From: an uncultured archaeon
Lineage (GTDB): Archaea > Asgardarchaeota > Lokiarchaeia > Sigyniarchaeales > Promethearchaeaceae
DNA length: 32,000 bases
Assembly (NCBI GenBank): GCA_964426185.1
Contig: CAYRPF010000010.1
Span: 26,186-58,185, forward strand
Direction of reading: 5' to 3'
Positions 48-17,628 of the stretch are shown in pieces. A program made the translations under genes and the position numbers. The stretch's first letter is position 1. Every line of letters starts with the position of its first letter. Under the pieces are notes generated by a model. That model was not told where the DNA came from. It ran no database searches and saw only the letters and a list, made by a program, of their open reading frames with translations.

Positions 48-1415
48 CTAAAACTGCTTTTTAGATTTTTTCACTAACATCGGAAGAATTAAACCAGCAA
101 AAAGCAAACCTTCCCACCCGAATGGAACGCTTCTTTTTGTAGCTGTATCATTCGACACTGGAGATGGTCCAGGATTTAATATATCAACTCGATCGATGCC
201 GCGGACACCATCAGCAATATAAAGATATTTCCCTTCTACATCAAAATTATAAGCATTTCCCAGTGAATTATAAACCCTAGACGTATTTATATTTGGGGAA
301 AAAGGATTTGTGATATCAATAAAGAAAGTTCCGTTGTCAGGTGTATTATAAAAGAGAGTATTCTCAAAAATAAACTGATTTTGTCCAGGATTTGCGGTAA
401 AATTATAAGAATTAATTAATTCTGGGGCAGATGGATTAGAAATATTATACAAAATCAAACCATGATTTGAAGTGGATAGAAAAATTACATCGTTTTTCAT
501 TTCGATATCGTTAAAAGTATCATTTGAAATTTGAATAGTGTACAAATCAATCGGTGAATTAAAATTTGAAACATTGACAATTTTTAAGGCAGGATTTGAT
601 GAAACAGAATAAATTAATAAATCGGAAGATAATTTTGCACTTAAAATAGAATTATTTGCTTCCAAATAGACCAAATTACTCGGATTTGCTGGATCTAAAC
701 AGTCAATTATGAAAATTCCATCATTCGCTGTTGCGACAATCATTTTTGATTGATTAAGCAAAAATTTTGTAATAGAGCTATTAATTTCTATTTTACTAAT
801 CATATTGATATTTGTGGGGTCAGATACGTCTAAAATCCGAATTCCATAATTATTATCTACCAAGAAAGCATTTTTTCCTTGTTTCTCTATAAATCGTGCA
901 TCTATATTATTTGTATAATATTTGCCTAGAAGAATTCTAGAATTGTAATTTGAAATATCTAAAACCAACAAACCATTTTGACCATCTGCAACATAAGCGG
1001 TATGATCTTCGATTATAATATCATATGTATCGGCGGGATTTACAACCTTGTCTTTGTAATCGCCATAAGTAATTATAGTAAAGCATACTGTTGAGATTAG
1101 CATAAATGAAAAGAAAAAGGCACCTACTCCCGTTTTCAATATTTTTTTCCAATCCCATTGTTTTTTCTTATATGGAAGTCTGAAAATTACAAAACTCTGA
1201 AGAAATGGCCAAACTAGCATAAATCCTGCTAAATATAAAAACATCCACCATCCTCGTAAATCAAATACTAATACACCAAATAATGATGACACAACTGCTG
1301 TAATTACTTTTACCCAGTAGAATTTTTCTTCAATTGTTCGTTCTTTAGTTTTTTCTTTCTCTATGGCTTTCTTCTTTTTTTTAACTAAATATTTGGGTTT
1401 TCTTTTTCTAACCAT
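48..1415 (-). CDS. Membrane protein: N-terminal EMC6/Rab5ip-like 3-TM domain, LVIVD-repeat beta-propeller, C-terminal TM/sorting-like tail
   Basis: Basic N-terminus, then three hydrophobic segments (YWVKVITAVVSSLFGVLVFDLRGWWMFLYL...ILKTGVGAFFFSFMLISTVCF). Repeated AYVADGQNGLLVLDIS / LYIADGVRGIDRVDI motifs are LVIVD-type. C-terminus is VPFGWEGLLFAGLILPMLVKKSKK. ATG at 1415 preferred over the ORF-track start at 1439. Confidence 0.8.
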   Translation of the reverse strand: MVRKRKPKYLVKKKKKAIEKEKTKERTIEEKFYWVKVITAVVSSLFGVLVFDLRGWWMFLYLAGFMLVWPFLQSFVIFRLPYKKKQWDWKKILKTGVGAFFFSFMLISTVCFTIITYGDYKDKVVNPADTYDIIIEDHTAYVADGQNGLLVLDISNYNSRILLGKYYTNNIDARFIEKQGKNAFLVDNNYGIRILDVSDPTNINMISKIEINSSITKFLLNQSKMIVATANDGIFIIDCLDPANPSNLVYLEANNSILSAKLSSDLLIYSVSSNPALKIVNVSNFNSPIDLYTIQISNDTFNDIEMKNDVIFLSTSNHGLILYNISNPSAPELINSYNFTANPGQNQFIFENTLFYNTPDNGTFFIDITNPFSPNINTSRVYNSLGNAYNFDVEGKYLYIADGVRGIDRVDILNPGPSPVSNDTATKRSVPFGWEGLLFAGLILPMLVKKSKKQF

Positions 1416-1457
1416 AATGTTAATAATAGAAAATATCAAAAAAATTTTGTTTTTTTA

Positions 1458-1964
1458 TTAAAAACTAGTGCGCAAAATCTCATCTTGGTAAACTATCCGT
1501 TCACAATATGTACAAGCAATTTTTAGCGGATCTTCAGAAATAACTCGAAATTTAGTTTCTACTGGCTCTCGCTCTACATTTGTGATGCACTTTTCATTTG
1601 GACATTTAACAATTCCATGAATCATATCAGGAATTTTTACAACAAATTTTTTTACTACCTTGTAATCTTCAATAAAAGAAACTTTACATCTTGGGGAAAT
1701 AATCGCAATTTGATGGATTTGTTTTTGATCAAGCATTATCTTTTCAACTTTTACGATATCCTTCTTTCCACTTTGGGACGAATTTGATTTGACATTTATC
1801 CCTACTGTGATTAGACTGCCATCCTTTCCTTCTAGTCCAAGAATTTTCATTACAGAAAATGCAAAACCTTCTTTAATGTGATCGATAACGGTTCCACGTT
1901 GAATTTTCTCTACATAAAGTCTCTTACCATCTTTATCTGAGTTTTCTGAATTCATAATGCTCAA
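1458..1964 (-). CDS. pyrI: Aspartate carbamoyltransferase regulatory subunit
   Basis: VEKIQRGTVIDHI, KKDIVKVE, Zn ligands CPNEKCIT and CTYCE. Confidence 0.97.
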   Translation of the reverse strand: MSIMNSENSDKDGKRLYVEKIQRGTVIDHIKEGFAFSVMKILGLEGKDGSLITVGINVKSNSSQSGKKDIVKVEKIMLDQKQIHQIAIISPRCKVSFIEDYKVVKKFVVKIPDMIHGIVKCPNEKCITNVEREPVETKFRVISEDPLKIACTYCERIVYQDEILRTSF

Positions 1965-2708: not shown

Positions 2709-5700
2709 ATGAAAATTCGAAAATTTGCTATTATTTTTTTATTGGGCTTAATGCTGATTACTATTCCTGTAAACCTTCAATTACATTCAAATTCTTTTTT
2801 GAATACAATAAAAAAAACCTCAAATCTTAATCAAATCTTTGTTTCTTCGCTAAATATAGAAGAAATGAATAAAGATTCTCATTTATTTTTGAGAGGTGAG
2901 TCTTATGAACATTTTTCAGATGATAGCGGATTTTCAAAGAAAATTTTCATAGTTTTTGATCCTACATTAGATTATAATGATCGAATTTTCTACCTTAAGA
3001 AAATTGACAGTAATGTGAAAATAAGATATAATTATAAATATATTCCTGTAGTATCGGTGGAATTTTCTCAATCTCCTCATACTTTGTTCAAACAGAATCC
3101 GCTGAAATTTTTGAGGATAACAAAAATTGTTAATCTTCATCAAACTAGGATTGAACGCCCTGAATACTCACGATTATTTTTTTCAGACGAACAAAAGAAT
3201 AATTCTTCATCAAACATGGAAAATTGGTGGTTAAATTCAATTGATGCTGCTGATGTCCAATATACCGGTAAAGGAGTAAAAATTGCCATTATAGATACAG
3301 GTATTTCTGTTCATCCAGATTTTTTCTCAAATGGGAACAGTCGTATTATTGCAAGTAAGAATTTTACTAGTGAAGCGGGAGTTACTCAAAATCAATATTA
3401 CTTCGATGATTATGGTCATGGGACTCATGTTGCTGGGATTGCAGCTGGTAACGGATTTTTATCCGATGGAAAATATAGAGGAGTTGCCTCACAAGCGCTG
3501 TTATATAATGCTAAAATATCAAATTCGACTGGATTTATTGAAGAAGATGATGTGGTTGCTGCGATTGAATGGTGCATTGACGAACAAGTTGATATTATCA
3601 GTATGAGTTTTGGAGATACTATTCCTGAAGTTTGGACAATTCAAACTATGGCAATTCAACAAGCAGTAGAACATGGAATTGTAGCCTTTGCATCGGCTGG
3701 GAATAGCGGTCCTGGTTTTTTTACTTCAGGGACTCCGGCAAGTGGACTTTTTTCCATCGCGGTAGGAGCAACAGATGAGAATAATCAAGTTGCTCAATTT
3801 AGCAGTTGGGGTCCGACTTATTCTAATCAATTAAATCCTGAAATTTGTGCCCCTGGAGTAAACATTATAGCACCTCTTTCTAAAAGTTCAATTTTAGATT
3901 TAGAAATGAATATTAGAGAAAATAAAATTGATTATTCTTCAAATTTTGGTTACATACCTTTATCTGGAACGAGTATGGCATGTCCTATAGCTGCTGGAGC
4001 TGCTGCTCTATTGATAGAAGCATATCCTAATGCTTCTCCTGAAACCATAAGAAATGCACTTATTGAGGGTGCAAAAGAGATTAATTCAGGGATTTTAGAA
4101 GGAAAAATGGTTAGAGCCGGAGCAGGGCTCATTAATATAAGTAAATCTCTGCAAATCTTAGAAGAATGGAGTACAAATTCTGATGGTGTGAATGATAATA
4201 TTCGAATTTTCCCTAATATTTTCCCTTATGCTCCTTATGATTTTTTTAATTATCCAGGGGATCAAATTATTCTAAATTATACATTGATAAAGGGTTCTTC
4301 GGCTACTATAAAGATAGAATTACCCAATATTCCAGGAATTGAGTTTCAGATTGTTTCTAACAATTCTTTTACATATGAGAAAAAGATTGTGAATGTTCCA
4401 ATTTATGCCCGTATATTATATAATGCAACTCCAGGGTATTATTCGGGGAATATTTTAGTAAAAAATGCAATTACCGGGACTTTACTTGACCAGATTGAGT
4501 CTAATATTATTATAAAAACTCCAAAAGCAAAAGTCTATTTCGATTCTTATCACGGTTTAAATGATTTCTACCCCAGTAACTTTTCTACATTTTCCCAAAT
4601 TGACCTCTATCATTTATTTAGTCTTTTAAACTCACAAAATTATCAAGTAGCATTTAATATGGAGCATTGGACGCCTTTCTACAATGCTTCGCTAAATTCT
4701 CCTATTCTTACCAGTGAAATTTTGAGTAACATTGATATACTTGTGCTCCAAGCGCCAATTATTCCATACAATCGATATGAAATTCAAGAAATAACCAATT
4801 TTTATAACGAAGGGGGTTCAATTTTATTTCTCGGAACAGTTAATAATCTTTTATGCACAGATTCACTAAACGCTTTGTTTGACTCATTAAACACTAATAT
4901 AAAATTTGGGGAAAATTTAGTTAACCTTAGAAATTTCGGTTATTTTTCACAAGCGATTCCCTTTAATAATTTAACTCTAAACGAGGAGGTTCCTCTCTTA
5001 ACTAATATTTCTGAATTTTATTATTCCTTTGGAACTTCTTTCGTTAATCAAACACCAGTAATTCCTTTAATCTCTGTAGATGGTAAAATAGTCGCAATGG
5101 ACGCAAGTTTTAATAGATCTACTGGGAAATTCCTTTTATTCGGCGATTATCATTTTCTAACTACCTCTGTATTCACATCAGAGAGACTTTATACAAATCT
5201 CTCTGCTTTTGCTACAAATATCTTCGACTATCTACGTCCTTCAGATAAGATTCGAATTGATCTCTCTTATAATCACCAATATACTGTAAATACTACAAAA
5301 ATTCCCATTAAACTTCAAATTCTTGATCAAATTTCCAAAGAACTCTATTCAAACTTCGCAATTGGCTCGGCTCTTAACATGTCTCTTCTTTTTCCTAATG
5401 GCACCGTAAAAAATTTGGATGTGATTGAAAATTCTAAATTGAAGGCTTATTTTTCGTCAATTCCGCTAAATAATTTAAATTTCAGCAGATATCCACTTAT
5501 TTTGACAGTTAATTTACAAATTAATGAAACAATTTATTCAGATACCTTTAAATTTATTCATGAAGTCTCAGATTTGATTTCTCCTTATAAAATAAGTAGC
5601 TTAGACGAGAAATTAGATCGATTAGAACCAGGACCTTCAATATTTGCTATAAATACTTCAGAAACGGACATTTTTAGATCAATAAACGCCATTATTTTCC

Positions 5701-6503
5701 CAAATTCATATTTTTCTATTAATAATCTTGAAATTTTGGAAACTAATTTATCTTCTTTTGAAAATTACTCAATAATTTCTTATGAATTTACTAGCAGAAA
5801 TCCTGCAGGAGAAATCATTTTCACCCCAAACGATCTCTCTAATCAATCTATTAATAGAATTGATTTGTATCCATCTCGTATCTCTTTTTCATTAATTGAT
5901 TATTTACCAGAAGTAAAAGAAACATCATCTTTCATTGGATCTAATCCATTCACAGAATATCAAAATGGCGATTACATCATACCCGTACAAATTTTGGTTA
6001 ACCAAGAAATTCCTCTTCAAGTTTCAATTGTTGATTATGATGATAATCCAGTAGATCGAAACAAATTCAAATTAAGTTGTTCCTTAATACCAGGCATAAT
6101 TTATCATAACTTTTTCAATCCGATATTTCCTCAGAAAATATGGTATTTTAACTTAAATTATAATACTACCAGTCAATTTTATGAAGGAAATATTGTGATT
6201 CCTGCAGAATTTCAATTCTCTGGTTTTTCTGGATCTGTGAAATATTCCAGTGAATCTGATTTCTTGAATTTCTATACATTGGCATTAATATCCGTAATCG
6301 ATCCGAGTGGTGGGTCTAATTTTTATCCATTACTCTTTATGCCTTATGAAAAACCGATCCATCTTTTTAATTTAACTCCAATTTTCATGCTATATGGATT
6401 GATTGCGTTATCAATCGTCTTTATAGAAAAAGGCTCAAAATGGAAGCAAAAAATAAGATTTCACAGAATTTCCCACAATCTTGTAAGCAAAAAAAAATTT
6501 TAA
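2709..6503 (+). CDS. Secreted, membrane-anchored S8 (subtilisin) serine protease with site-1-protease-like C-terminal domains
   Basis: Signal peptide; catalytic Asp (IAIIDTG), His (GHGTHVAG), oxyanion Asn (SAGNSGP), Ser (GTSMACP). Downstream VYFDSYHG...DILVLQAP...EGGSILFLG domain (DUF4350/GldG-like), then a C-terminal TM and basic tail. Confidence 0.93.
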   Translation: [1264 protein letters not shown]

Positions 6504-6805: not shown

Positions 6806-8563
6806 TTATTTTTTTTCTGAAAGATGTATTACATGTTGAATCCGTTTTCTAATCCAAACTGGGGCCATCATTGACATGAGGGGACCCAATCGTGGTCCTT
6901 TTTTACTCCCCAAAAGGATAAGATAAAAAGCTTGGAATATCTTCATGGGTTTTACTTGTAACGTATCTCTTAGATGAACCATAATCTCTTTTATCCGATC
7001 TTCTGTTAATTCTTCTGCTGTTTCAATAATGTTATAGAACTCTCTTAGAATTTTAATTTGTTCTGCTGATAATTTAGATACAAGTTCATCTGGAAATTCT
7101 TCTAAAATGGAGAAGAGTATTATTTTTCTTTCCATTTCCTTTTTATTTTGTAGATTTTTCTCATTTTCAATTAAATTTCTCATTTCTTGTATCCAATTAC
7201 TTGTTTTTGCCAATTGCATCTTAAATTCTTCAACATCAAATTCTTGGTTTCCATACTCTTTGAGCAAATAATGTTTAGTTTTTGTTAGTACCCCAGATTC
7301 TTTCAAAATGGGTTTTAATTGTGCCAGAATTGTGATTAATCGAAATGGAATTTGATATTTTAATTTTGCTTTTATTTTATCAGGAATAATTAACGGATAT
7401 ATATACTTAATTTCTCGATATTCGTTATCTGAAATTGCAGGCTCTAAATCATAGTATATTCTTTCTATTCTTTGAAATTCATTATAATATTGTTCCATTT
7501 CTTCAATTCGAATTGAAATATGTTTAGTTGGATTTGCTTGATAAATTAACATTCTGAGAATTTTGGCTTCTGCCATTTCAAGAAATTTAGCAGGTGTAAA
7601 AACAATACCTTTAGAAGTTTTCATGTCTCGATCCCCTAAGCGTAACCATTCATATGCTACTTTAATGGGTCCTTCATATCCGTAGATTTCTTTGCATAAT
7701 TCTAAACCTGTGTCATAGGATCCACCTGGAGTGCAATGATCTTTTCCTGCAGGTTCACAAATAGTATTAAAAATTGTCCATTTGGCGGGCCAATCTAATC
7801 TCCAATTTAATTTGACCAATCCACTTTGAATCGTCACTTTTCCTTCGTAACCGCAGCTTGGACAGCGATAAACACATTCGTCAGTATCCTCAAGATATTT
7901 CAAAACGCGATTTGGGCTGATTGTTCCATCCTTTTGTTTTTTTTGCGTTGCTTGACATTTTTCACAAATAACCATGGCTCCCATCCAAGTTTTTTGTTGT
8001 TGTAGATATTCTTCTTTTTTTTCAGGGGCCATTGATCTTGTGAGATATTTTGCAACAATTTCCTTTACTAATTCATTTTTCTTTAGACCAATACGAATTT
8101 TCTCTTTCATTTCTTCTGTTTTATATAAATTGTGGGTCCAAACAATTTCCGCTGAAATACCCATTTCTTGAAATGTTTGAGCTAATTCATTACCAAATAT
8201 TTCTGCATAACTTTGAGAATCTGATGGATCAAGTGGATTCGGGATTAGAGCAAATGGTTTGCCCAAATGTTTTTTAGCATAATCTGAAGGGATATAGGAA
8301 GGAAAACGCTTTGCGGCATCCAAATCATCAATAAATAGACGAAATATTACGCGAAGGCATCTTTCCGCATATTTTCTTCTGATCGCTTCGCATATTAAGA
8401 GTTCTCGCATAATTCCCAAATGAATATGTCCACTAGGTGTTTTCCCAGTAGCTAAATTTATTTCATTAGGATTTCGAGCATCAATATCTCTTATAATTTT
8501 CTCAAGCCAATGATCTGGAAAGTGTGTAGGATTATTGGAGGTTGATTGATTCATTTCTTTCAT
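6806..8563 (-). CDS. lysS: Class I lysine--tRNA ligase
   Basis: GKTPSGHIHLG (HIGH), KLNWRLDWPAKW, EPAGKDH, DMKTSKG (KMSKS-like), GPRLG. ATG at 8563 (or 8554) preferred over 8614. Confidence 0.96.
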   Translation of the reverse strand: MKEMNQSTSNNPTHFPDHWLEKIIRDIDARNPNEINLATGKTPSGHIHLGIMRELLICEAIRRKYAERCLRVIFRLFIDDLDAAKRFPSYIPSDYAKKHLGKPFALIPNPLDPSDSQSYAEIFGNELAQTFQEMGISAEIVWTHNLYKTEEMKEKIRIGLKKNELVKEIVAKYLTRSMAPEKKEEYLQQQKTWMGAMVICEKCQATQKKQKDGTISPNRVLKYLEDTDECVYRCPSCGYEGKVTIQSGLVKLNWRLDWPAKWTIFNTICEPAGKDHCTPGGSYDTGLELCKEIYGYEGPIKVAYEWLRLGDRDMKTSKGIVFTPAKFLEMAEAKILRMLIYQANPTKHISIRIEEMEQYYNEFQRIERIYYDLEPAISDNEYREIKYIYPLIIPDKIKAKLKYQIPFRLITILAQLKPILKESGVLTKTKHYLLKEYGNQEFDVEEFKMQLAKTSNWIQEMRNLIENEKNLQNKKEMERKIILFSILEEFPDELVSKLSAEQIKILREFYNIIETAEELTEDRIKEIMVHLRDTLQVKPMKIFQAFYLILLGSKKGPRLGPLMSMMAPVWIRKRIQHVIHLSEKK

Positions 8564-8656
8564 TAGTAAAAATATCTCGCGAATTATGAATTTTTCTAAA
8601 AAAAATAGAAGCAAAAAAGATAAGAATTAGGCCAAATTTCCTTTAATGAGAAGAAT

Positions 8657-10471
8657 ATGCGAATTGCAGTAATTAACCGCGATAGCTGTAAACCCACTGA
8701 TTGCGCATCGGGACCAAACAAACCATGTATAAAATACTGTCCTAGAAATCGAACTGGTGATGAAACGATTAAATTAGGGGATGACGGATATCCCCACATT
8801 AATCCCCTTTTATGCTCAGGTTGCGGAATTTGTGTAAAAAAATGCCCTTTTCATTGTTATACAATTATAAATATTCCCGAAAAGCTGGAGAGCGAAGTTG
8901 TTCATAAATATTCACCTGATGGTTTCAGCCTTTTTCGAATGCTAATTCCTTCTAAAAGTAGAGTTCTTGGAGTAGTAGGTCAGAATGGAATTGGAAAATC
9001 AACCGCGCTAAAGATCCTTTCGGGTTCATTAAAAATGAATTTAGGTAAATTCGGAGAAGAAACACCTGAATGGGATGAAATCATTTCAAATTTTAAAGGA
9101 TCTACCCTCCAAGAATATTTTACTTTATTGAAAGATAAGAAATTAACAATAGTTCATAAACCTCAAGAAATTACCGAAATTCCGAATTTTGTAAAAGGAA
9201 AAGTAGTTGATCTACTCAAAAAAATAAATAACTCCCCAAAGATGGAAGAAATCGCTAAAAAATTAGATTTAGTTCATCTGTTAGAGAGAAATATTGGTGT
9301 TTTAAGTGGAGGGGAATTACAACGAGTTGCAATTGCAGCAGCACTACTACGGGATGGTGATTGTTATTTAATTGATGAACCTTCTTCATATTTAGATGTT
9401 TCTCAAAGGCTGAGGATGGCAAAATTAATACGAAATCTTCCTCAAGATTCAAAACGGGTGGTTGTTATCGAACATGACTTAGCGATTCTCGATTTTCTGA
9501 GTGATCAAGTATGTTTACTTTATGGAGAACCGGGAGCGTATGGTATAATTTCAAATGTAGCTGGTGTACGGGTTGGAATCAATACATTTCTAAATGGATA
9601 TATTAAAAGTGAAAACATGCGATTTAGGGAAGAGCCTATCCATTTCCATGAACGCCCTCCAACACAATCTCTTTTCTATTCTTCTAAGGTTGTTTGTGAA
9701 TATAACGATATGGAAACCCACCTGGGAGATTTTAAATTAAAAGTATGTGCTGGAGAAATCCATGCTGGTGAAGTAATTGGTATATTAGGTCCAAACGGAA
9801 GTGGAAAGACTACTTTTATAAATCTTATCGCTGGAAAAATAAAACCAACAAAGGGGATAAGCATCAATACTGAAGAATTAAAGATTGCAGTAAAACCTCA
9901 ATATATTGAATATGATCCAGAAAAATCTGTTTTGGATATACTTCAAAAAATCCGAGGATCCCCGTATTTTGATACTCAATATAAAAAACGAATTCTTCGA
10001 GGATTAAAAGTCGAACAATTAGAATCTAGAACAATAGGAGAACTTTCGGGGGGTGAATTACAAAGAGTTGCAATTGCCGATTGTCTTACTGAAGATGCGG
10101 ATCTTTACTTAATTGATGAACCTTCCGCATTTTTGGATGTAGAAATGCGCCTTGCTATGGCTATGATTCTCCGTAGATCAATAGAAAGTAATAAAAAAGC
10201 GGCATTTGTGGTAGAGCATGACATTATCACTCAAGATTTTATTAGTGATTCATTAATCGTATTTAAGGGCGATCCAGGGAATAGTTGTGCGTGCACGCCT
10301 CCTCAAGACTTACGTTCAGGAATGAACGAGTTTCTAAAGATGATGAACATTACTTTTAGAAGAGATCTCTCTACTGGGCGGCCTAGAGTAAACAAGTTGG
10401 GATCAAATATCGACAAAATGCAGAGAAAAATTGGAGAATATTATTATATTCCAACTAAAGACGAAGATTAA
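8657..10471 (+). CDS. rli: Ribosome recycling ATPase ABCE1/RLI
   Basis: N-terminal Fe-S cysteines (CKPTDC...CIKYCP, CSGCGICVKKCP), two ABC domains (GQNGIGKST, GPNGSGKTT, LSGGELQR twice), C-terminal GRPRVNK...GEYYY. Confidence 0.98.
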   Translation: MRIAVINRDSCKPTDCASGPNKPCIKYCPRNRTGDETIKLGDDGYPHINPLLCSGCGICVKKCPFHCYTIINIPEKLESEVVHKYSPDGFSLFRMLIPSKSRVLGVVGQNGIGKSTALKILSGSLKMNLGKFGEETPEWDEIISNFKGSTLQEYFTLLKDKKLTIVHKPQEITEIPNFVKGKVVDLLKKINNSPKMEEIAKKLDLVHLLERNIGVLSGGELQRVAIAAALLRDGDCYLIDEPSSYLDVSQRLRMAKLIRNLPQDSKRVVVIEHDLAILDFLSDQVCLLYGEPGAYGIISNVAGVRVGINTFLNGYIKSENMRFREEPIHFHERPPTQSLFYSSKVVCEYNDMETHLGDFKLKVCAGEIHAGEVIGILGPNGSGKTTFINLIAGKIKPTKGISINTEELKIAVKPQYIEYDPEKSVLDILQKIRGSPYFDTQYKKRILRGLKVEQLESRTIGELSGGELQRVAIADCLTEDADLYLIDEPSAFLDVEMRLAMAMILRRSIESNKKAAFVVEHDIITQDFISDSLIVFKGDPGNSCACTPPQDLRSGMNEFLKMMNITFRRDLSTGRPRVNKLGSNIDKMQRKIGEYYYIPTKDED

Positions 10472-10636
10472 TTTCAACTAACCCTAACTTTTTTCTTCCA
10501 TCCAAAATTTCTGTTTTTTAACCTTAATATTTAAATTTATCGACATTATTCGAAAAATTTAACTTTTATATTCACTTTTCTAAAGTAGATCCTTCATCTG
10601 AAGGATTCGAAAATAGTCATTCTGAGTGTGAAATAA

Positions 10637-11662
10637 ATGGGACATAGAAGGCAATCCGCCCCTCGACATGGATCTTTAGCATATCTTCCTCGAAAACGCG
10701 CAAGATATAATAAAGGTCGTGTCCGTCACTGGCGTCCTTATCCAGATAAGGACATTAGGTTCCAAGGATTTGCAGGATTTAAAGCAGGGATGACTCATGT
10801 TGCGTATATTGAAGATCAAGAACACAGTGCCTTTTTTGGAAAAGAAATCGTAAAGGCAGTTACTGTTCTTGAAACCCCTCCCTTAGTATTATTTGGAGTA
10901 AAAGTTTATCATAGGGATGAATACGGTTTAAATACCATCGGAGAAGTATATGCTAAAGAGTTAAAACCTGAATTAGGAAGAAAAATCCAATTACCAAATC
11001 CAGAGACTTATAATTTCGAGGAAAAACTTAAGGAATTAGAAGCAAAGATCCAAGATCATGATGAAGTTCGTGGATTATTCCATACACAACCATGGAAATC
11101 AAGTGTACCACGAATTAAACCAGATATTCTCGAAATAAATGTGACTGGCGGCAATGGCAATGCAAAAGCTCACTTCAATTTTGTAAAAGAGCGATTAGGT
11201 CAAGAAATAAGAGTTCGTGATGTTATCGAAGAAGGATCACTAATCGATACGATTGGTGTTTCCAAAGGTAAAGGTTTTCAAGGCGCAGTTAAAAAATTCG
11301 GGATAAAATTAATGTCTCGGAAAAATCGTAAAGGAAAACGACGAGTTGGTTGTATAGGTCCTTGGAAACCCCCAAAATTATTGTATACCATCGCCCGTTC
11401 GGGACAAATGGGATATCATCAACGAGTAGAATATAACAAACGAATCTTAAAGATTTCAGAAGATAGTGATGAAATCAATCCAAAAGGAGGATTCATTCGC
11501 TATGGTCTAGTTAAAAGTGATTATATGCTTTTACTTGGCTCAGTTCCAGGTCCTAAAAAGCGATTAATCCGACTGAGAGATTGTATGAGACCTCGTGATA
11601 ATTTCAAGGTATCCTCCCCTGAGATTACTTATATTAGTAAAATCAGTCAACAAGGAAAATAG
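10637..11662 (+). CDS. rpl3: 50S ribosomal protein uL3
   Basis: [45 protein letters not shown]. Confidence 0.98.
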   Translation: [341 protein letters not shown]

Positions 11663-11666
11663 GTGA
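11662..11666 (+). promoter_or_regulatory. Shine-Dalgarno motif GGTGA before rpl4 (GAGGTGA at 12459-12465 before rpl23)
   Basis: GGTGA lies 6 nt upstream of ATG 11673; GAGGTGA lies 6 nt upstream of ATG 12472. Confidence 0.7.
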
Positions 11667-11672
11667 AGAAAA

Positions 11673-12470
11673 ATGGCGAAAAATACGAAATCTGTTAAAA
11701 TACTCGGCTTAGATGGGACAGAAAAAGGAAATATCGAATTACCAGATGTGTTCAACCTATTTCCAAGATTTGATCTGATTCATCGTGCTGTAGTTTCTTC
11801 AGAATCTGCTCAAAAACAACCACAAGGAAGAGATCCATTAGCAGGAAAGCGAAACACTGCAGGAAGCTGGGGTACTGGATATGCTTCTGCAAGAGTTCCT
11901 CGTTTAACCGGATCTGGTTATCCATCTTCAAGAAATGCAGCATTTGCACCAGGAGTTGTAGGTGGGCGATTAGCTCATCCTCCACGTGCTGAAAAAGTAA
12001 TTTTAAAGCGAATAAATAAAAAAGAAAAAGTGAATGCTTTATTATCAGCTATTTCTGCAACTGGAAAATTTGATCTTATCCAAAACCGAGGGCATAAAAT
12101 TACTGAAGAAATGGAATTTCCATTGGTTATCGACGATAAACTCCAAACGTTAAAAAAATCTTCACAAGTGATGGAGGTTCTTGAAAAACTTGGCTTAAAT
12201 TTGGAATTAAAGCGAGTGAAAGAAGGAAAACAAATTCGAGCAGGAAAGGGAAAACGTCGAGGACGGAAGTACAAACGAAAAACTGGGCCTTTAATCGTTA
12301 TTAAAGATGATTTTGGGATCTTTAAAGCAGCTCGTAATATTCCAGGTGTTGATGTTATCAATGTTAATGAACTTAGTTGCAAATTATTGGCTCCAGGAAC
12401 CCATCCTGGTAGATTAGTTCTATGGACTCAATCTGCTTTCCAGCAGTTAAAGAAATTTGAGGTGAACTAA
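11673..12470 (+). CDS. rpl4: 50S ribosomal protein uL4
   Basis: [48 protein letters not shown]. Confidence 0.98.
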
Positions 12471-12471
12471 A

Positions 12472-12738
12472 ATGGCAGATAATTATTACGCGATAATTAA
12501 AAAGCCTCTGGTAACTGAAAACACTTTTGATTTAATTGAAGATCAAAATAAAATCGTTTTTATCGTTGACCGTAAAGCAAATAAGTATCAGATCAAAAAA
12601 GCTATTGAAAAATTGTATGACGTTCAAGTTATTAAAGTCAATACATTAATTAATACTAAAGGAAGCAAAAAAGCATTTGTAAAACTCCATCCAAACTATT
12701 CTGCTGCAGATTTAGCAATAAAGCTTGGAATCTTTTAA
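12472..12738 (+). CDS. rpl23: 50S ribosomal protein uL23
   Basis: [34 protein letters not shown]. Confidence 0.98.
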
Positions 12739-12739
12739 G

Positions 12740-12775
12740 TTTCTTTTTTTTTCAATTCTTTCTTTTCTTTATTTC
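12740..12775 (+). terminator. T-rich archaeal terminator of the rpl3-rpl4-rpl23 operon
   Basis: Long oligo-T/pyrimidine tract immediately after the rpl23 stop, facing a convergent gene. Confidence 0.55.
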
Positions 12776-12855
12776 GTTCTAATGGGCAATCTACTAAACT
12801 TAGGTCAAATAGTCTGGTCTCTATCTAACAGTAGAGAAACGACAAGAAATCTTTA

Positions 12856-14358
12856 TTAAAAAAAATTTGAAAAGATCAACATTTTTACTACTAATGAAAT
12901 CACCAAAAAAGATCCTAAAAATAACAGATCCACTTTTTTAAGAATTTTTCCAGAAACCATGGTATTAAAAGAAAATAAAGTTATAATTAAAAAATAAAGA
13001 GGAAGAATTAAAAAATACCATAAATCATAAGTTTGTCCTATAAGTGGGGTATTACTTGAGAAATAATTGAAAATATGCATGTAATTTGAAAATATTACAT
13101 GAAAAGCATACACAAAGGGGCTTAAAATACTTAAATTGATCATCGATACTAATTTGAAAATTAAAGATTTACTTCGTATTTCGTTTTGTATGAGTTCTTT
13201 TTGTTTCTTAATTTTTTCATGTTTGATCAAGATGTCCTTAAAGGATTTGAAGAAATCTTGTCCTTGTGTGCAATTTATTTTTAAGATCTGAGAAAATGCT
13301 TCTATAATGATGAAAATACTCTTGTTTTTGGTTCTCTCTTTTAGAATATGAAAAAAAGCGTCAATTGGATTAAAACTTCCAATTATTAGATCTCTAATAT
13401 CTTTAATAGGTTTATTTGATGATTTTTGGAGAGAATTTAGAAGAGCTAATGGAGGAGAAAAGAATTGTAATTCGTAACTAAATAATTCAAAGAAATCAAT
13501 AACTTCATTCAATCCAATGTTCTTTGAATTTTTGCTTTTAATATAAATTAAAGGAAAAGAACTCTTCCATCTTTTAATTAAAAAGAAAAGCAACATCGTG
13601 AAGGATAAAATAATGAAAATAATATCTAAAATTGACTGAAAATAAAAAAGATTGACAGAAAAGAAAACAATTGGGAAAAAAAGGGTTAGAAAAACTAATA
13701 TTTCTAAGTGAGTCTTAAATTTTGGCAAATTAAATTCAAATTTATTCAACGTTTTTTCATCGAATTGAGAAATTAAGGAATTATTCAGATCATTTCGCTC
13801 AAGAATATAGCAGAATAAATCTTTAAATTCTTTTGAATAAAACTGAATTTCTTGCAAATTTTTGGTAATATTACCCCCACGAAAAATATTTTGAATTTTC
13901 TCTTTAATATTTATACCTAAACTTGGATTCTGAAAAAATATCTCAAAAATATATTGAAATGTATTAATTTGCCCAGAAAATGTTTTAGAAAAAAGTGACA
14001 AATTCAACAATATAAACCGATAGTTATCCATATTTTCATATTTTCGTTTTTGGATTTCTACATATAAGAAATTGTGAAGAAATGAGCCTAAAATAAAGAT
14101 AATAATTAAAGAAAAAAATAAAAATCCCGTAATTTTAATTAATAAAATATAAACAAAGAAAAAAAGGATGAAGATTAAGCAAAATATAAGTAAGTTAAAT
14201 TTTTGAATCTGAAATTGGGAAATTCCAAAAATAATTTCTACATCTCTCCATTTTTTTTCCCTTTTACGAAATAGAATTGGTGTAGATTTAAACATCAAAC
14301 ATGATTTAATATAGTATTTGAGAAGGAGATCATTCAAATGAAAATAAATTTCAATCAC
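12856..14358 (-). CDS. Multi-pass membrane protein, probable divergent TadC/FlaJ (T2SS-F) pilus platform
   Basis: Alternates TM pairs with ~120-aa soluble helical domains; FSYELQFFSPPLALLNS resembles the T2SS-F domain start. Lies downstream of the pilus ATPase. Start uncertain (GTG 14358 or ATG 14295). Confidence 0.6.
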   Translation of the reverse strand: MIEIYFHLNDLLLKYYIKSCLMFKSTPILFRKREKKWRDVEIIFGISQFQIQKFNLLIFCLIFILFFFVYILLIKITGFLFFSLIIIFILGSFLHNFLYVEIQKRKYENMDNYRFILLNLSLFSKTFSGQINTFQYIFEIFFQNPSLGINIKEKIQNIFRGGNITKNLQEIQFYSKEFKDLFCYILERNDLNNSLISQFDEKTLNKFEFNLPKFKTHLEILVFLTLFFPIVFFSVNLFYFQSILDIIFIILSFTMLLFFLIKRWKSSFPLIYIKSKNSKNIGLNEVIDFFELFSYELQFFSPPLALLNSLQKSSNKPIKDIRDLIIGSFNPIDAFFHILKERTKNKSIFIIIEAFSQILKINCTQGQDFFKSFKDILIKHEKIKKQKELIQNEIRSKSLIFKLVSMINLSILSPFVYAFHVIFSNYMHIFNYFSSNTPLIGQTYDLWYFLILPLYFLIITLFSFNTMVSGKILKKVDLLFLGSFLVISLVVKMLIFSNFF

Positions 14359-14877
14359 CTATTTAAAATGAATGTAGCCTATTGAATTACTAATTCCTGC
14401 TGTGTAGGTTGTTACAGAATTATTCAACCCATAAATTTTTGTATTTTTCGATATTTTGAATACATATTTTTGGAATAAACTGAAATTTTCAATATAAAAA
14501 AAAAAGGTAATTTCTAGATACTTCTTTTCAAAATATCCTTCAATTGTCCCATATTGGCAAAAACTAAGTTGTACCGTCTCATTAAATTCAGAATTTATTG
14601 ATGAATTTTCAATTCTATTCAAATTTTCTTCCAATTTAGAAGAGTCTTCCTTAACACTTTTTTCCCAGAAATCGTTTAATTGAAATTCAGGTAGTAAATA
14701 GTCTAAAGGAAAAAAAAACGGCAAAAACATTAAATTAAGAAGCAATCCAAAAGATATAATTAAGTATTTTTCAAGAATTTCACTCATTTCGTTATATTTC
14801 AGAAATAAAAGTATTAATATTCCGATATAACTGGTCAATTTGAAAAAAATTAAATTTTTTATTATTATTAAGTTCAA
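14359..14877 (-). CDS. Hypothetical membrane protein of the pilus cluster
   Basis: Two N-terminal hydrophobic segments then a soluble domain. Fills the gap between the ATPase and TadC-like genes and overlaps the ATPase 3' end, so the start is uncertain. Confidence 0.45.
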   Translation of the reverse strand: MNLIIIKNLIFFKLTSYIGILILLFLKYNEMSEILEKYLIISFGLLLNLMFLPFFFPLDYLLPEFQLNDFWEKSVKEDSSKLEENLNRIENSSINSEFNETVQLSFCQYGTIEGYFEKKYLEITFFFYIENFSLFQKYVFKISKNTKIYGLNNSVTTYTAGISNSIGYIHFK

Positions 14878-16825
14878 TGATAACCTCTTTAATTTTATCT
14901 AAAATTGATTGTAGTTGATTTCTTTTTAAGATAAAGATATTTTTATATTTATTATCTAAAAATTCTTGGATTTGTAACGCATTTTTTTTCCATCTGTGCT
15001 CTTGAAAATCAAAATTAAATAGTTTTAATATCTTTATTTCTTTCAAAACAGGAATGTAAACAATCTGGTAAATCGAGTGAATAAATCGTTGATGATTAGT
15101 TCTTTTCATTAATATAATGATCCCTAAATCATTCAAGCATGATTGGTTAATATTGTAATGAAAAATCCATCTGTTTATTAATCCATTAATTGAAGAGGCA
15201 TGCGTTGTTTGAAGTCCTTTTAATCCAGCACTAAGACAGTGAAACATTGCATGTGTTTCTAAATTGCTTAAAATCTCACCAAGAATAATGAAATCACCTG
15301 AACGATGTAGTAATTTATAAATCTGTTTTTGTTTAGAATCTTTTTCTAAAGCTTCTGGTTTCACTATATATTTCAATTGATGAGATAAATTATTGATTTT
15401 ACCTAAGGTTTCAATATTTTCTTCCACATAAATTTTCCTAAAATGAGAAGGGGCATACATATCAATTGCATTGAGTAATGTCGTTTTTCCAGAATTTACT
15501 TCTCCCACAATGGTTATATTTATTCTAAAATAAACTGAAAACAAGATAAAGCTAGCAATTTCAATATTTAAGGTCTTTAAATTAACTAGATCTAAAAGTG
15601 TTAAAGTTTTTTTTTTCAAATTCCGAATATCAATAGCTATATTTTTCCAATGTGATGGATAAATATCTACACTAAATCTCGCGTAAAAATACTTTGATTG
15701 AAAAACATGCATAACATTTGGATGTTCTAAATCTAATCTCTTTTTACTTTCCAAACACACATAAGTCTTGATTGCTTCAATTTCTACATTAGAAAGCATT
15801 AGATCACTTTCTAATCTACCGTAACGTTGATGGTTAATATATAATGGAGTTTCAATTTCATCTATAAAAATTTCTTCAATCATTTCATCTTGAAGAAAGA
15901 TAAAAATTTTCTCAAATTTTAAATATCTCAGCATTAAAATTAATGAAACTTTCTTTCGATCTTCACTAGTAAGTGAATTATAATATCCTGCTAAGTAATG
16001 AAAGAATTTACACGAAATATCATTGATTCGTTCAGATAAATTGGAAGAAATTAAAAAGTCAGATTTTCGGACTTTAAGAGAAACAAATTCAAGGATTTGA
16101 TCTAATTTTGATAAAACATCTGATCTTAAATTTATTTCATAACGGATTTTTTTACAATGAATATTATTTTCATATATAATGATGTCGATTAAATCTTGAA
16201 AAACTTGATACCTTGTAATTAGTTTCTCTTGATTATTTGGAATAATTCTGCTTTTTATTGGCATGCTTTGAGTTAAATTTACGAATATTTTCTTCAGAGT
16301 ATTAATATTCCAAGAGAGAATGGCATAGCTTATCCTAAGGTATTGTGAGATTTTTGATTTGTACTTTAATTTTTCAAATCCACTTAATATTTTTTGATTT
16401 TTTTTTTCATTTCTGTTCATTTTTTTATTTGAATTATCACTTAATTCCGAATGATAATCCAAAATTTCATAGAATCGTATGATAGAAAAAGGTTCTTTGA
16501 AAAAAGTATTACTTAAGATTTTTTTACTACTTCTACTTAGTTTCTTTCTTTTCTTACTATATTTCTTTTGAAATGATATATATAATTCTCTTAGTAGAGA
16601 GAGTACATTTATTTCTTCTTTTGATAGTACTTGATTAAAAGGGCATACCACTTCTTCGATAATTTTGTCTTTGTGTTTTATAAAATAACTGAAGATACAA
16701 TCAAAACAATCAGAATGATCACAATTTTTGAACCTTGAAGATAAATTTGGCAACAGTTTGTAAGATAAAGACTTGGTTGTTTGATTTGGTGATATTACAA
16801 CTTGAAAGATATCCATAATCTTCAA
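14792..16825 (-). CDS. TadA/CpaF/VirB11-family pilus assembly ATPase with Cys-rich N-terminal extension
   Basis: DEMIEEIFID, IAIDIRN, Walker A GEVNSGKTTLLNA, Asp-box YVEENIE, Walker B FIILGEI, His-box QTTHASS. Confidence 0.9.
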   Translation of the reverse strand: MKIMDIFQVVISPNQTTKSLSYKLLPNLSSRFKNCDHSDCFDCIFSYFIKHKDKIIEEVVCPFNQVLSKEEINVLSLLRELYISFQKKYSKKRKKLSRSSKKILSNTFFKEPFSIIRFYEILDYHSELSDNSNKKMNRNEKKNQKILSGFEKLKYKSKISQYLRISYAILSWNINTLKKIFVNLTQSMPIKSRIIPNNQEKLITRYQVFQDLIDIIIYENNIHCKKIRYEINLRSDVLSKLDQILEFVSLKVRKSDFLISSNLSERINDISCKFFHYLAGYYNSLTSEDRKKVSLILMLRYLKFEKIFIFLQDEMIEEIFIDEIETPLYINHQRYGRLESDLMLSNVEIEAIKTYVCLESKKRLDLEHPNVMHVFQSKYFYARFSVDIYPSHWKNIAIDIRNLKKKTLTLLDLVNLKTLNIEIASFILFSVYFRINITIVGEVNSGKTTLLNAIDMYAPSHFRKIYVEENIETLGKINNLSHQLKYIVKPEALEKDSKQKQIYKLLHRSGDFIILGEILSNLETHAMFHCLSAGLKGLQTTHASSINGLINRWIFHYNINQSCLNDLGIIILMKRTNHQRFIHSIYQIVYIPVLKEIKILKLFNFDFQEHRWKKNALQIQEFLDNKYKNIFILKRNQLQSILDKIKEVIIELNNNKKFNFFQIDQLYRNINTFISEI

Positions 16826-16853
16826 ATTTCGTGCACCTTAATAAAAAACGACA

Positions 16854-17339
16854 TTAAAATGCCAAAGAAAAAAAAATAGAGAAAAGAAAAAAAGGTGCCA
16901 GTGGGGTTTTATCTTCTTTTTTCTTTCCAAAAAAAATTTTGTAGAAACAAATAGAAAGAAGAAAGAAGAAAAAAAAAGCAAATAAATCTGGAAACTCAAT
17001 TAAGAAAAAAGCACCACTCAATGACAAATTATGGTTAAATACAGGATTTACTAAAATAAGAAGAGTTATTTTAATATCAGCTCCCCCTAACTGCTCTTTT
17101 TTATATAATTGGAGAAATATAAGACTGATCAACACTTTGGTTAAAAAAATATCAAATTGCCAAACCCAATTGCCTAAAAAGAAAGAAACTATTGAAATCA
17201 ATAAAATCATAATAAAAGCTTCAAAAACTAATATCGAATCAATTTTCTGAAATAAAATATCTTCCAAACTAAAAAGAAAATAGAAAAACAGACTCATAAA
17301 ATATAAAAGAATAACAATATATCCATTATTCATAATCAT
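16854..17339 (-). CDS. Prepilin peptidase (A24 family)
   Basis: Multi-TM; first Asp in SLEDILFQKID, catalytic GGADIK, C-terminal PLAPFF. Confidence 0.85.
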   Translation of the reverse strand: MIMNNGYIVILLYFMSLFFYFLFSLEDILFQKIDSILVFEAFIMILLISIVSFFLGNWVWQFDIFLTKVLISLIFLQLYKKEQLGGADIKITLLILVNPVFNHNLSLSGAFFLIEFPDLFAFFFFFLLSICFYKIFFGKKKEDKTPLAPFFLFSIFFSLAF

Positions 17340-17628
17340 CCCAAAATTCTATAAGGTTCTTAATTGCACGAGCTCGTATATTTTCATCACAAAACCTATA
17401 GATTTTAATTCGACCAAAACACTTTTCTTCTACAATCTTTGCTTTTATTAGTAATTCTAAATGTTTTTTTACGCTATTATGGTTTAAACCGGACATTTTT
17501 ACAATATATGAGATATTTGTTTCATGAGAAAAAACTAAGATTTTAATTATTTTTGTTCTTCCTTTAGAAGCAAAAATATCTTCAATATTGTATGAATTTT
17601 CTTTAATTATACTTTGCATAATGTTCAC
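17326..17628 (-). CDS. Winged helix-turn-helix (ArsR-like) protein
   Basis: IFASKGRTKIIKIL...NISYIVKMSGLNHNSVKKHLELLIKAKIV...GRIKIY. Alternative start is ATG 17619. Confidence 0.88.
   Translation of the reverse strand: MNIMQSIIKENSYNIEDIFASKGRTKIIKILVFSHETNISYIVKMSGLNHNSVKKHLELLIKAKIVEEKCFGRIKIYRFCDENIRARAIKNLIEFWDDYE

Follow-up and report, generated by a model that had tools for sequence, protein, structure and literature searches.

The gene at 48..1415 on the minus strand of the window (the whole stretch of 32,000 nucleotides analysed here) probably encodes the Lokiarchaeial ortholog of the EMC6/OPTI-type insertase partners, carrying a clade-specific extension made of an outward-facing LVIVD beta-propeller and a fourth transmembrane (TM) helix; this extension would have arisen by gene fusion, and the protein would dock on a YidC homolog. 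Its three-helix membrane domain is homologous to EMC6 and OPTI, as judged from the fold and from profile-profile comparison via intermediate sequences, and its status as an ortholog rests on the presence of one copy per genome and on a position next to PyrI and NFACT genes that is common to the stand-alone gene. The features of the locus are the following:

48..1415, minus strand: whole coding sequence, 455 aa, with its ATG at 1415 and its stop codon at 48-50 (open reading frame list and translation).
1320..1415, minus strand: residues 1-32, predicted polybasic cytoplasmic tail, with 15 K/R in 32 residues (charge count).
1062..1319, minus strand: residues 33-118, EMC6/OPTI-type three-helix membrane domain (model pLDDT 86, structure and profile matches), consisting of TM1 (33-53), TM2 (56-78), a basic, predicted cytoplasmic loop with a WDWK..ILKTG motif (79-95), and TM3 (96-118).
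1029..1061, minus strand: residues 119-129, linker from TM3 to the first blade, with an N-P-A junction motif.
180..1028, minus strand: residues 130-412, LVIVD beta-propeller of seven blades, with a predicted extracellular position (Pfam, model, Foldseek).
120..179, minus strand: residues 413-432, Pro/Ser-rich stalk, of low model confidence.
51..119, minus strand: residues 433-455, predicted fourth TM helix and basic cytoplasmic tail, with 4 K/R in 8 residues.
1458..1964, minus strand: pyrI, the upstream neighbour (Pfam PyrI and PyrI_C), a positional marker rather than a functional part.

The open frame starts at a TTG and covers 48..1439 on the minus strand (463 aa), while the ATG at 1415 gives the protein of 455 aa. 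Since the start of the 12 full-length orthologs coincides with this ATG in the alignment, 48..1415 is the likely coding sequence. The sequence-only reading, which had first likened the membrane domain to EMC6, followed the 463-aa TTG frame, so that its residue numbers and its span of 1065-1334 are offset by 8 residues; they were otherwise correct, and the strings it quoted lie at residues 33-62 and 92-114.

OPTI (C20orf24/RAB5IF; PDB 7tut chain 9) belongs to the GEL complex of the multipass translocon, where it is obligately paired with the insertase TMCO1. When the model of the three-helix domain was compared by Foldseek with 350,542 PDB chains, OPTI (7tut_9) came first, with a TM-score of 0.70/0.67, an rmsd of 2.3 and 28% identity, followed at ranks 2 and 3 by human EMC6 (7ado_F, with a TM-score of 0.70/0.73, and 6ww7_F), unrelated entries lying near 0.3. 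VIA-align, run on 48,161 chains, gave Z scores of at least 8 only for OPTI (11.6, rmsd 2.0 over 94 residues), human EMC6 (10.7) and yeast EMC6 (10.6), these three superposing at an rmsd of 2.0-2.5 over 91-94 residues, and the next chain reached 7.2. GET2/CAML, the three-TM partner of GET1 that has an N-terminal Get3-binding basic motif and an insertion in TM3, was absent among the entries listed by both programs, an absence that we do not take as a difference in fold; a polybasic N-terminal tail is found in the window protein as well. Bundles of three membrane helices are structurally simple, which counts against a case based on fold.

The comparison of sequence profiles leads to the same family. 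OPTI is also the best match when the wider family profile is searched against 177,635 PDB sequences (E 0.012, profile positions 9-95). As intermediates we used 21 Asgard open reading frames picked for reaching the cut-off of the Pfam EMC6 family (PF07019). Against this selected set, hhalign gave 97.5% and E 6.8e-12 for a profile of the fused proteins only and 98.1% and E 6.6e-14 for the wider profile, over 93-97 columns, and the set itself matched eukaryotic OPTI at 97.9% and E 3.6e-13. Direct profile similarity between the wider profile and OPTI is modest (hhalign P 0.0027, equalled by 1 and 3 of 100 shuffles) and becomes strong only via the Asgard intermediates.

Simpler searches stop short of this link. 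The window protein scores 10.1-10.6 bits against PF07019 (E ~1, under the gathering cut-off of 23.3), and 10 of 31 family members match that model at E <= 1, the best at 8e-4. Neither the window protein nor its orthologs match the archaeal family EMC6_arch (PF19094, cut-off 26.7 bits) at E <= 10; the best match in the same genome, of 15.8 bits, is a different open reading frame, and a thaumarchaeal relative of the family (P0145) reaches 20 bits. As the Pfam and NCBIfam matches of the three-helix part stay at noise level (EMC6 at ~10 bits beside Cornichon, a holin, DUF4231 and others), we take no support for EMC6 from those alone. A narrow profile of fused proteins, searched with hmmsearch against the PDB sequences, reached no EMC6 or OPTI (the top matches being GPR34 and eL22 at E 0.2), and the wider profile was therefore required. 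The fused-only profile retrieved 29 proteins at E <= 0.001 from 1.84 billion representatives, with no eukaryotic EMC6 directly among them; all except the last few lie at E <= 1e-10, and the sole named weaker match is thaumarchaeal. A search of a protein atlas by language-model features gave no usable match, and a fold search of the Atlas with our model of the three-helix part returned just weak unrelated bacterial entries; the Atlas's own model matched EMC6 and EMC6_arch clusters. The case for homology is carried by the OPTI and EMC6 structures and by the intermediate profiles, and not by the parallel with EMC6 that had been drawn by eye, the direct Pfam score being only about 10 bits.

Besides the fold, the window protein shares with OPTI its three TM helices, an N-terminus predicted to be cytoplasmic, and two motifs: (F/I)YW where TM1 starts, and W..K.G....F..FM in TM3 and the stretch before it. 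However, OPTI is a stand-alone protein of ~130 aa without an exoplasmic domain, whereas here a propeller of 300 aa and TM4 are added. EMC6, grouped with OPTI in one Pfam family, likewise has the same fold and the topology predicted here, but it is a protein of ~110 aa in a multi-subunit complex whose lumenal propellers lie on a separate subunit, EMC1. In size, the window protein departs from a small stand-alone subunit (~90-140 aa): it has 455 aa, with the propeller and TM4 placed after TM3. The closest eukaryotic relative is C20orf24/OPTI and not EMC6 itself, in agreement with Lewis and Hegde (2021, PMC8675477).

That work described archaeal EMC6-like proteins, such as Lokiarch_50810 and MJ0606 (Pfam PF19094, EMC6_arch), and proposed them as partners of YidC/DUF106 in a case built on AlphaFold models; a structural cluster of EMC6 from Lokiarchaeia and eukaryotes appears in a 2026 preprint (10.64898/2026.10.28.762692). 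The window protein is the same kind of protein from the same phylum, and the proposed partner, a DUF106/YidC homolog, is here linked to secY. Unlike it, the published proteins are treated in both works as small stand-alone subunits, and a propeller fusion is mentioned in neither (PMC8675477, 10.64898/2026.10.28.762692). Lokiarch_50810 (KKK40543.1) may itself be either a stand-alone gene or the first part of a fused gene that was split. We found no published report of the fusion, even though archaeal EMC6-like proteins have been published.

The extension follows the three-helix part. Residues N126, P127 and A128, at the junction of TM3 and the propeller, are invariant in the alignment of the 12 orthologs. 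The repeats that follow belong to the LVIVD family, as had been recognised from the sequence (Pfam PF08309, 64.5 bits in 4 stretches, where the cut-off is 20.2). The model of this part (pLDDT ~90) has 27 strands of at least three residues that form seven blades, six of four strands and the last of three, and Foldseek matches it to propellers of seven to eight blades at E 1e-12. A stalk with pLDDT below 50 at residues 422-434, in which P415 and P419 are invariant among the 12 orthologs, leads to the final TM helix, also rightly anticipated: TM4 opens with G433-W434, both invariant in the same 12 proteins, is modelled as a helix at 434-454 over a hydrophobic stretch of ~433-450, and ends in a KKSKK tail. 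Since no NCBIfam CTERM model matches an archaeosortase-type C-terminal sorting signal there, TM4 is treated as a plain anchor.

The distribution of charges and sequons suggests how this chain would be placed in the membrane. Lysine and arginine make up 15 of 32 residues in the N-terminal tail, which is K-rich also in stand-alone relatives, 7 of 17 in the loop between TM2 and TM3, and 4 of 8 in the C-terminal tail, and the ectodomain is net acidic. The latter holds 10 sequons in the window protein, versus 6.0 in shuffled sequences; among the 12 orthologs there are 7-12 per ectodomain, versus 4-7 in shuffles, and 0-1 elsewhere. Free LVIVD relatives, in turn, carry signal peptides and C-terminal anchors. 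On these grounds the N-terminal tail, the TM2-TM3 loop and the C-terminal tail are predicted to be cytoplasmic, and the propeller to face outwards with a membrane tether at either end, in agreement with the outer-face position given by the sequence-only reading. Positive-inside counts and sequons thereby predict for the window protein the same topology as in EMC6 and OPTI, with a cytoplasmic N-terminus and an exoplasmic end of TM3.

The candidate partner would be found in the same genome, which encodes a YidC/DUF106 homolog directly after secY and a second paralog. In the proposed mechanism, the three-helix domain would still dock on the YidC homolog, as EMC6 does on EMC3, and would so keep the propeller positioned on the insertase's exit side. 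Complex prediction with the three-helix domain alone and the YidC homolog gave a score of 0.41, versus 0.00 for the best control, a band in which the tool is more often wrong than right unless the pairing is likely beforehand. Of 80 solved complexes, 58 reach the mark applied to this score, as do 2 of 110 mismatched pairs, but among passing scores of up to 0.60 there are only 7 of the 80 solved complexes and both of these mismatches. Three runs share at least 81% of their contacts, with a partner pLDDT of at least 68; as similar complexes have already been solved, the pass may reflect likeness only. The prediction gives a weak hint that the three-helix domain may bind the YidC homolog of the genome. 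A propeller over an insertase core, as first proposed from the sequence, is predicted as far as the outer face is concerned, and the association with the insertase has weak predicted support.

With an insertase signal of this kind, the EMC6-type bundle might instead serve only to hold a surface LVIVD propeller in the membrane, its insertase work having been lost. Among the surface proteins of the order, LVIVD propellers that stand free and bring their own anchors are common, the support for YidC binding from complex prediction is weak, and the propeller accounts for two thirds of the protein. However, the three-helix region is the best conserved part, with a mean pairwise identity of 70% versus 35% for the propeller, and its cytoplasmic loop keeps invariant motifs that would be superfluous in a plain anchor. 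Moreover, the fused gene is the sole EMC6-type gene in these genomes and has kept the ancestral PyrI/NFACT position, so that EMC6 function, if needed, must come from the fused protein. We consider the loss of insertase work unlikely, and favour an EMC6/OPTI-type subunit that would have kept its role.

As to the propeller itself, it could be a working exoplasmic module of a YidC-EMC6 insertase, which would receive, hold or help to fold the translocated, glycosylated segments of clients. This is a speculative proposal, to which we give rather little weight; if true, it would make the protein a convergent single-chain counterpart of the lumenal cap formed by EMC1, testable in a cultured Asgard archaeon.

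The three-helix region recurs in 142 of the 400 genomes of the phylum, as one EMC6-type copy per genome; this recurrence and its high conservation go beyond chance. Only four genera, all of one Lokiarchaeial family and with Lokiarchaeum ossiferum among them, have the fused form, which is the sole copy of its genome; in line with a single origin, these genera form one clade on the YidC tree with an SH-aLRT of 97, a tree of one gene on which the groups are set by the very trait that is counted. In the sister family, 113 of the 135 genomes have stand-alone relatives of the domain, which also occur in other classes of Asgard; in most genomes these are an open reading frame of ~90-160 aa. In three of the genera (g1 of the window's own genome, g5 and the P0009 lineage), the fused gene adjoins NFACT and PyrI; the stand-alone gene adjoins NFACT at two loci (L012 and L018), with PyrI adjacent too except at L012.

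A gene split in one genome raises the question of whether the long open reading frame could be an artefact, either a read-through call or a misassembly joining an EMC6-type gene and a propeller gene. In the fragmented genome L007, a frameshift breaks the copy in two, one piece having 186 aa and the other 272 aa, and a search for the exact sequence of the first gave no match. Single-contig genomes nevertheless hold uninterrupted open reading frames of ~440-470 aa, as do independent assemblies taken from ENA, NCBI and Logan, and the frame, together with the invariant N-P-A, is kept in 12 orthologs down to 36% identity, which leaves an artefact with next to no credibility. The combination of three TM helices, propeller and C-terminal TM in a single chain, as originally described, is intact in closed genomes.

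The same architecture invites the thought that it is an ancestral Asgard arrangement from which eukaryotic EMC6 and EMC1 were derived. The architecture is analogous in that an EMC6-type bundle is combined with a propeller on the exoplasmic side and a TM helix at the C-terminus, and among archaeal proteins the EMC6-like ones of Asgard are closest to eukaryotic EMC6/OPTI (PMC8675477, and our own OPTI profile match). Nevertheless, the fusion is confined to four genera of one derived clade, whereas 53 of 201 Asgard genomes have a stand-alone open reading frame, mostly of ~90-140 aa, that clears the Pfam EMC6 cut-off; the propeller, in addition, is of the LVIVD type and 26-28% identical to local free surface proteins. 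Such an ancestry is very improbable, and from its distribution and the YidC tree we conclude that the fusion is real but clade-specific, and no forerunner of the eukaryotic EMC. The EMC-like architecture proposed from the sequence is real as an architecture, though derived and not general in Asgard or ancestral, and the search for the fusion in other Asgard genomes found it again within the four genera, with the stand-alone form elsewhere.

In the eukaryotic complex, EMC1 is a subunit of its own, ~1000 aa long, which carries two propellers, an EMC1_C domain and a C-terminal TM. The likeness is one of outline only: an exoplasmic propeller at an Oxa1-type insertase and a C-terminal TM helix. When residues 125-455 were scanned with Pfam at E <= 10, LVIVD and DUF5074 were the only families listed, and the domains of the EMC1 type (PQQ-like PF13360 and EMC1_C PF07774) were absent. 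No EMC1 chain is found in the 50 best of at least 500 Foldseek matches, which are WD40, designed, BamB and other propellers; as at least 500 chains match the propeller, EMC1 may rank below these 50. The caution with which the propeller had been called analogous rather than homologous to EMC1 was well placed, since the LVIVD type is common in free type-I surface proteins of the same order, and no specific link to EMC1 came up in the Pfam scan or among the 50 best Foldseek matches. With respect to EMC1, the extension is of independent and late origin, as judged from its distribution and the YidC tree.

The extension seems to derive from a type-I surface protein of the local LVIVD kind, in which the EMC6 domain took the place of the signal peptide. 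The free surface proteins of Lokiarchaeia (340-382 aa, PF08309) have the same repeat family, about seven blades and 26-28% identity to residues 125-455, and three of the four examined end in a propeller, a TM helix and a basic tail; they differ in having an N-terminal signal peptide or single anchor in place of the EMC6-type bundle. They are multi-copy in many genomes, and in the window's genome the fused gene is the only LVIVD gene. An EMC6 gene would thus have been joined to the gene of such a surface protein, with TM3 taking over the role of the signal peptide. At the stand-alone loci L012 and L018 no propeller gene lies beside the EMC6-type gene, so that the fusion did not simply join two adjacent genes that can still be seen side by side.

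EMC6/OPTI-type partners of Oxa1-superfamily insertases link the membrane-protein biogenesis of archaea and eukaryotes, and the archaeal side of this link has so far been based on sequence comparison and predicted models. The protein described here is a warning that such architectures should not be read as ancestral, its origin being late, local and from a common family of surface proteins. It indicates that an insertase core can gain an exoplasmic propeller through a simple gene fusion, in an independent parallel to the EMC1 cap, and the exposed propeller would offer a built-in handle for the pull-down or imaging of an archaeal insertase complex in a cultured Asgard archaeon.

The only EMC6/OPTI-type gene of this genome belongs to a fused form, confined to one clade, that adds an LVIVD propeller and a further (fourth) transmembrane helix. 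It occupies a single open frame (window 48..1439, minus strand) with its start at the ATG at 1415, which is the start position in 12 full-length orthologs, giving a protein of 455 aa. The genome is a Lokiarchaeial (Asgard) assembly of 3.26 Mb, 92% complete. Orthologs of the protein occur in Lokiarchaeota/Promethearchaeota assemblies and also in Candidatus Lokiarchaeum ossiferum, whose copy is named at NCBI simply "LVIVD repeat-containing protein". The translated protein contains both strings quoted in the sequence-only reading (residues 33-62 and 92-114); that reading counted residues in a TTG frame that is 8 residues longer. The protein is organized as follows:

Residues 1-32, minus strand: polybasic tail with 15 K/R
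Residues 33-118, minus strand: three hydrophobic helices, with an invariant, very basic loop (RLPYKK.QWDWK.ILKTG) between helices 2 and 3
Residues 119-129, minus strand: short linker with an invariant N-P-A
Residues 130-412, minus strand: LVIVD propeller (Pfam LVIVD, 4 stretches, 64.5 bits), modelled as seven-bladed with a pLDDT of about 90
Residues 413-432, minus strand: Pro/Ser-rich stalk
Residues 433-455, minus strand: final helix and KKSKK tail

Among the orthologs, mean pairwise identity is highest in the 3-TM part (70%), and falls to 35% in the propeller and 31% in the last helix. The strongly polybasic N-terminal tail (window 1320-1415, minus strand) is common to fused and stand-alone Lokiarchaeial EMC6-type proteins (P0136, P0140, P0142). 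Basic N-tails act as a docking element in GET2 and, by analogy, this conserved tail could be a candidate docking element for the ribosome or Get3.

Against the Pfam EMC6 family (PF07019), the window protein scores about 10 bits, no higher than against Cornichon or a holin family, with the cut-off at 23.3; likewise, no EMC6 chain is found among the PDB sequences matched by the narrow profile of fused proteins only. The window protein by itself is thus insufficient to establish EMC6 likeness, and the case rests on structure, intermediates and direct profile signal. Residues 23-127, modelled from 31 family members (pLDDT 86), have as their first Foldseek match in the whole PDB the TMCO1 partner OPTI (7tut_9; TM 0.70/0.67, rmsd 2.3, 28% identity), followed by human EMC6 (7ado_F, 6ww7_F), with yeast EMC6 lower and unrelated rows near TM 0.3. 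The independent structure comparison VIA-align gave Z of at least 8 for 3 of 48,161 chains: OPTI (11.6) and EMC6 from human (10.7) and yeast (10.6); the following chain scored 7.2. A cluster of EMC6 proteins (TM 0.75) and another of EMC6_arch were likewise matched by the Atlas's own model of the window protein.

The intermediates come from other Asgard classes, where the profile built solely from fused proteins matches small ORFs. ORFs above the curated Pfam EMC6 cut-off occur in 53 of 201 Asgard genomes, and in five of them (G305, G306, G307, G007 and G087) they are the same ORFs matched by the fused-only profile. In hhalign, a profile of 21 such ORFs matched the fused-only profile (97.5%, E 6.8e-12), the wider family profile (98.1%, E 6.6e-14) and eukaryotic OPTI (97.9%, E 3.6e-13). 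Directly, the best match of the wider family profile among 177,635 PDB sequences was OPTI (E 0.012), with the whole domain aligned and the most conserved motifs of the family paired; its hhalign comparison with OPTI gave P 0.0027, a score that 1 and 3 of 100 column shuffles also attained. The 3-TM region is therefore an EMC6/OPTI-family domain, and the EMC6-like N-domain proposed from sequence is borne out by the fold matches and by hhalign through the Asgard intermediates. This identity is already known: Lewis and Hegde (2021, PMC8675477) detected a single EMC6-like protein in each of the archaeal proteomes they queried, that of Lokiarchaeum being the nearest to EMC6 among the archaeal ones and nearer still to C20orf24 (OPTI), and in a 2026 preprint (10.64898/2026.10.28.762692) 22 Lokiarchaeia proteins cluster with eukaryotic EMC6.

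The window's genome has one copy of the 3-TM domain, and a genome-wide Pfam search there returned no further PF07019 or PF19094 candidate. In the phylum, the domain is detected in 142 of 400 genomes. Across these 400 genomes, the long form, with open frames of about 450-500 aa, is restricted to four genera of the window's own family (g1, g3, g5 and g6); the ORFs in its genera g2 and g4, in 113 of 135 sister-family genomes and in more distant classes are short (about 100-260 aa). The order CxxCxxCC, PyrI, fused gene, NFACT is shared by the window's genome, Lokiarchaeum-like contigs and one split copy; the stand-alone gene is flanked by NFACT and PyrI in the sister family and adjoins NFACT in g2. 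Since these neighbours are shared, the fused and stand-alone forms are positional orthologs. The YidC homolog served as an independent marker: its tree groups the four fused genera into one clade (SH-aLRT 97) and leaves the stand-alone genera of the family outside, which argues well for a single gain of the fusion, even though this is a single-gene tree with groups defined by the trait being mapped. In the split copy (L007:821-2196; genome G138, genus of Lokiarchaeum ossiferum), a frameshift separates a 186-aa ORF, with the EMC6-type domain and the first blade, from a 272-aa ORF with the remaining propeller and TM4; in that assembly the first piece would pass for a stand-alone EMC6-like protein.

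Other EMC6-type proteins also carry additions. In another Asgard family (G087), L086:172-849 encodes a 226-aa ORF at the Pfam EMC6 cut-off (23.3 bits) which, past TM3, adds a short stretch rich in Thr and Asn and then a hydrophobic C-terminal helix whose tail is RRRR, a layout of 3-TM domain, short ectodomain and TM4 without a propeller; similar frames of 228-260 aa are present in G082, G085, G088 and G092. The layout is a second elaboration of the EMC6-type protein, independent of the propeller fusion. P0134 (212 aa, from the representative search) has about 110 soluble residues, ending in a CxxC motif, before its EMC6-type domain, which could reflect either a genuine fusion at the N-terminus or read-through of the upstream gene; frames of about 200 aa lie at the EMC6-type gene in several sister-family genomes. 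Further matches of the Atlas model of the 3-TM domain were a mostly Nitrososphaerota cluster (771 members, about 188 aa) and a Bathyarchaeota cluster with PKD domains (224 members, about 178 aa), hinting at EMC6-like bundles with other extracellular add-ons elsewhere in Archaea.

The remaining annotated features of the window include two very large predicted surface proteins:

2709-6503, plus strand: S8 subtilase, predicted surface protein of 1264 aa with a TM helix at its end, in the same place in relatives
Within 6806-18855: class I lysyl-tRNA synthetase, twin-ABC ATPase, ribosomal proteins L3 and L4, T2SSE-type ATPase and Cdc6/Orc1 (housekeeping)
12856-14358: 500-aa ORF with no Pfam match
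19489-23589, minus strand: predicted surface protein of 1366 aa with at least 8 PKD repeats

K and R make up 15 of 32, 7 of 17 and 4 of 8 residues in the predicted cytoplasmic segments, and acidic residues outnumber basic ones in the 314-residue ectodomain (34 D+E vs 20 K+R). All 12 orthologs, which are kin and so not independent tests, have 7-12 N-x-S/T sequons per ectodomain, against 4-7 in shuffles, and 0-1 in the rest of the protein. LVIVD propellers are abundant across other genomes of the order, the fused gene being the only one in the window's genome. Four free relatives were read (26-28% identical): each combines a propeller of about 300 aa with a signal peptide or an anchor at the N-terminus, and three also have a C-terminal TM helix with a basic tail. 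Charge distribution, sequon excess and these signal peptides or anchors argue strongly for a propeller on the outside, as the sequence-only reading had placed it, and the extension most probably derives from the local surface-protein family. In the simplest origin, a type-I LVIVD surface-protein gene would have been joined to an EMC6-type gene, TM3 taking the place of the signal peptide. Such an origin also speaks for a propeller that is extracellular and has no specific EMC1 kinship. The Pfam scan of the window protein found no EMC1 family, and the best 50 of at least 500 Foldseek matches for the whole model were generic propellers, in line with the earlier caution that the propeller may be analogous to EMC1.

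As for the insertase, a DUF106/EMC3_TMCO1 gene (63 bits) lies immediately after secY in the window's genome, and a second, divergent paralog of 223 aa (30.3 bits) is found outside the window (contig C100, L002:1450-2121). The complex predicted for the secY-linked protein and the 3-TM domain, from alignments of 29 and 31 rows respectively, scored 0.41 (runs of 0.44, 0.41 and 0.38), against 0.00 for the best control, passing a mark that 58 of 80 solved complexes and 2 of 110 mismatched pairs also attain, where passes at 0.60 or under comprise 7 of the 80 solved complexes and both mismatches. At least 81% of contacts agree between the three runs, with a partner pLDDT of at least 68. Because EMC3-EMC6 and TMCO1-OPTI are solved structures, this pass may reflect likeness to them and not binding of this copy, and the model is at most suggestive of pairing with the secY-linked YidC homolog. 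Taken with the high conservation of the 3-TM part and its being the only copy, this weak predicted interface makes it reasonable to propose that YidC has remained its partner.

Our literature search found no published mention of an EMC6-propeller fusion. The earlier description, a single-chain EMC-like architecture, is fair for the shape of the protein and does not hold for an EMC precursor: its distribution, limited to one clade, marks the fusion as a late, convergent parallel to the EMC.
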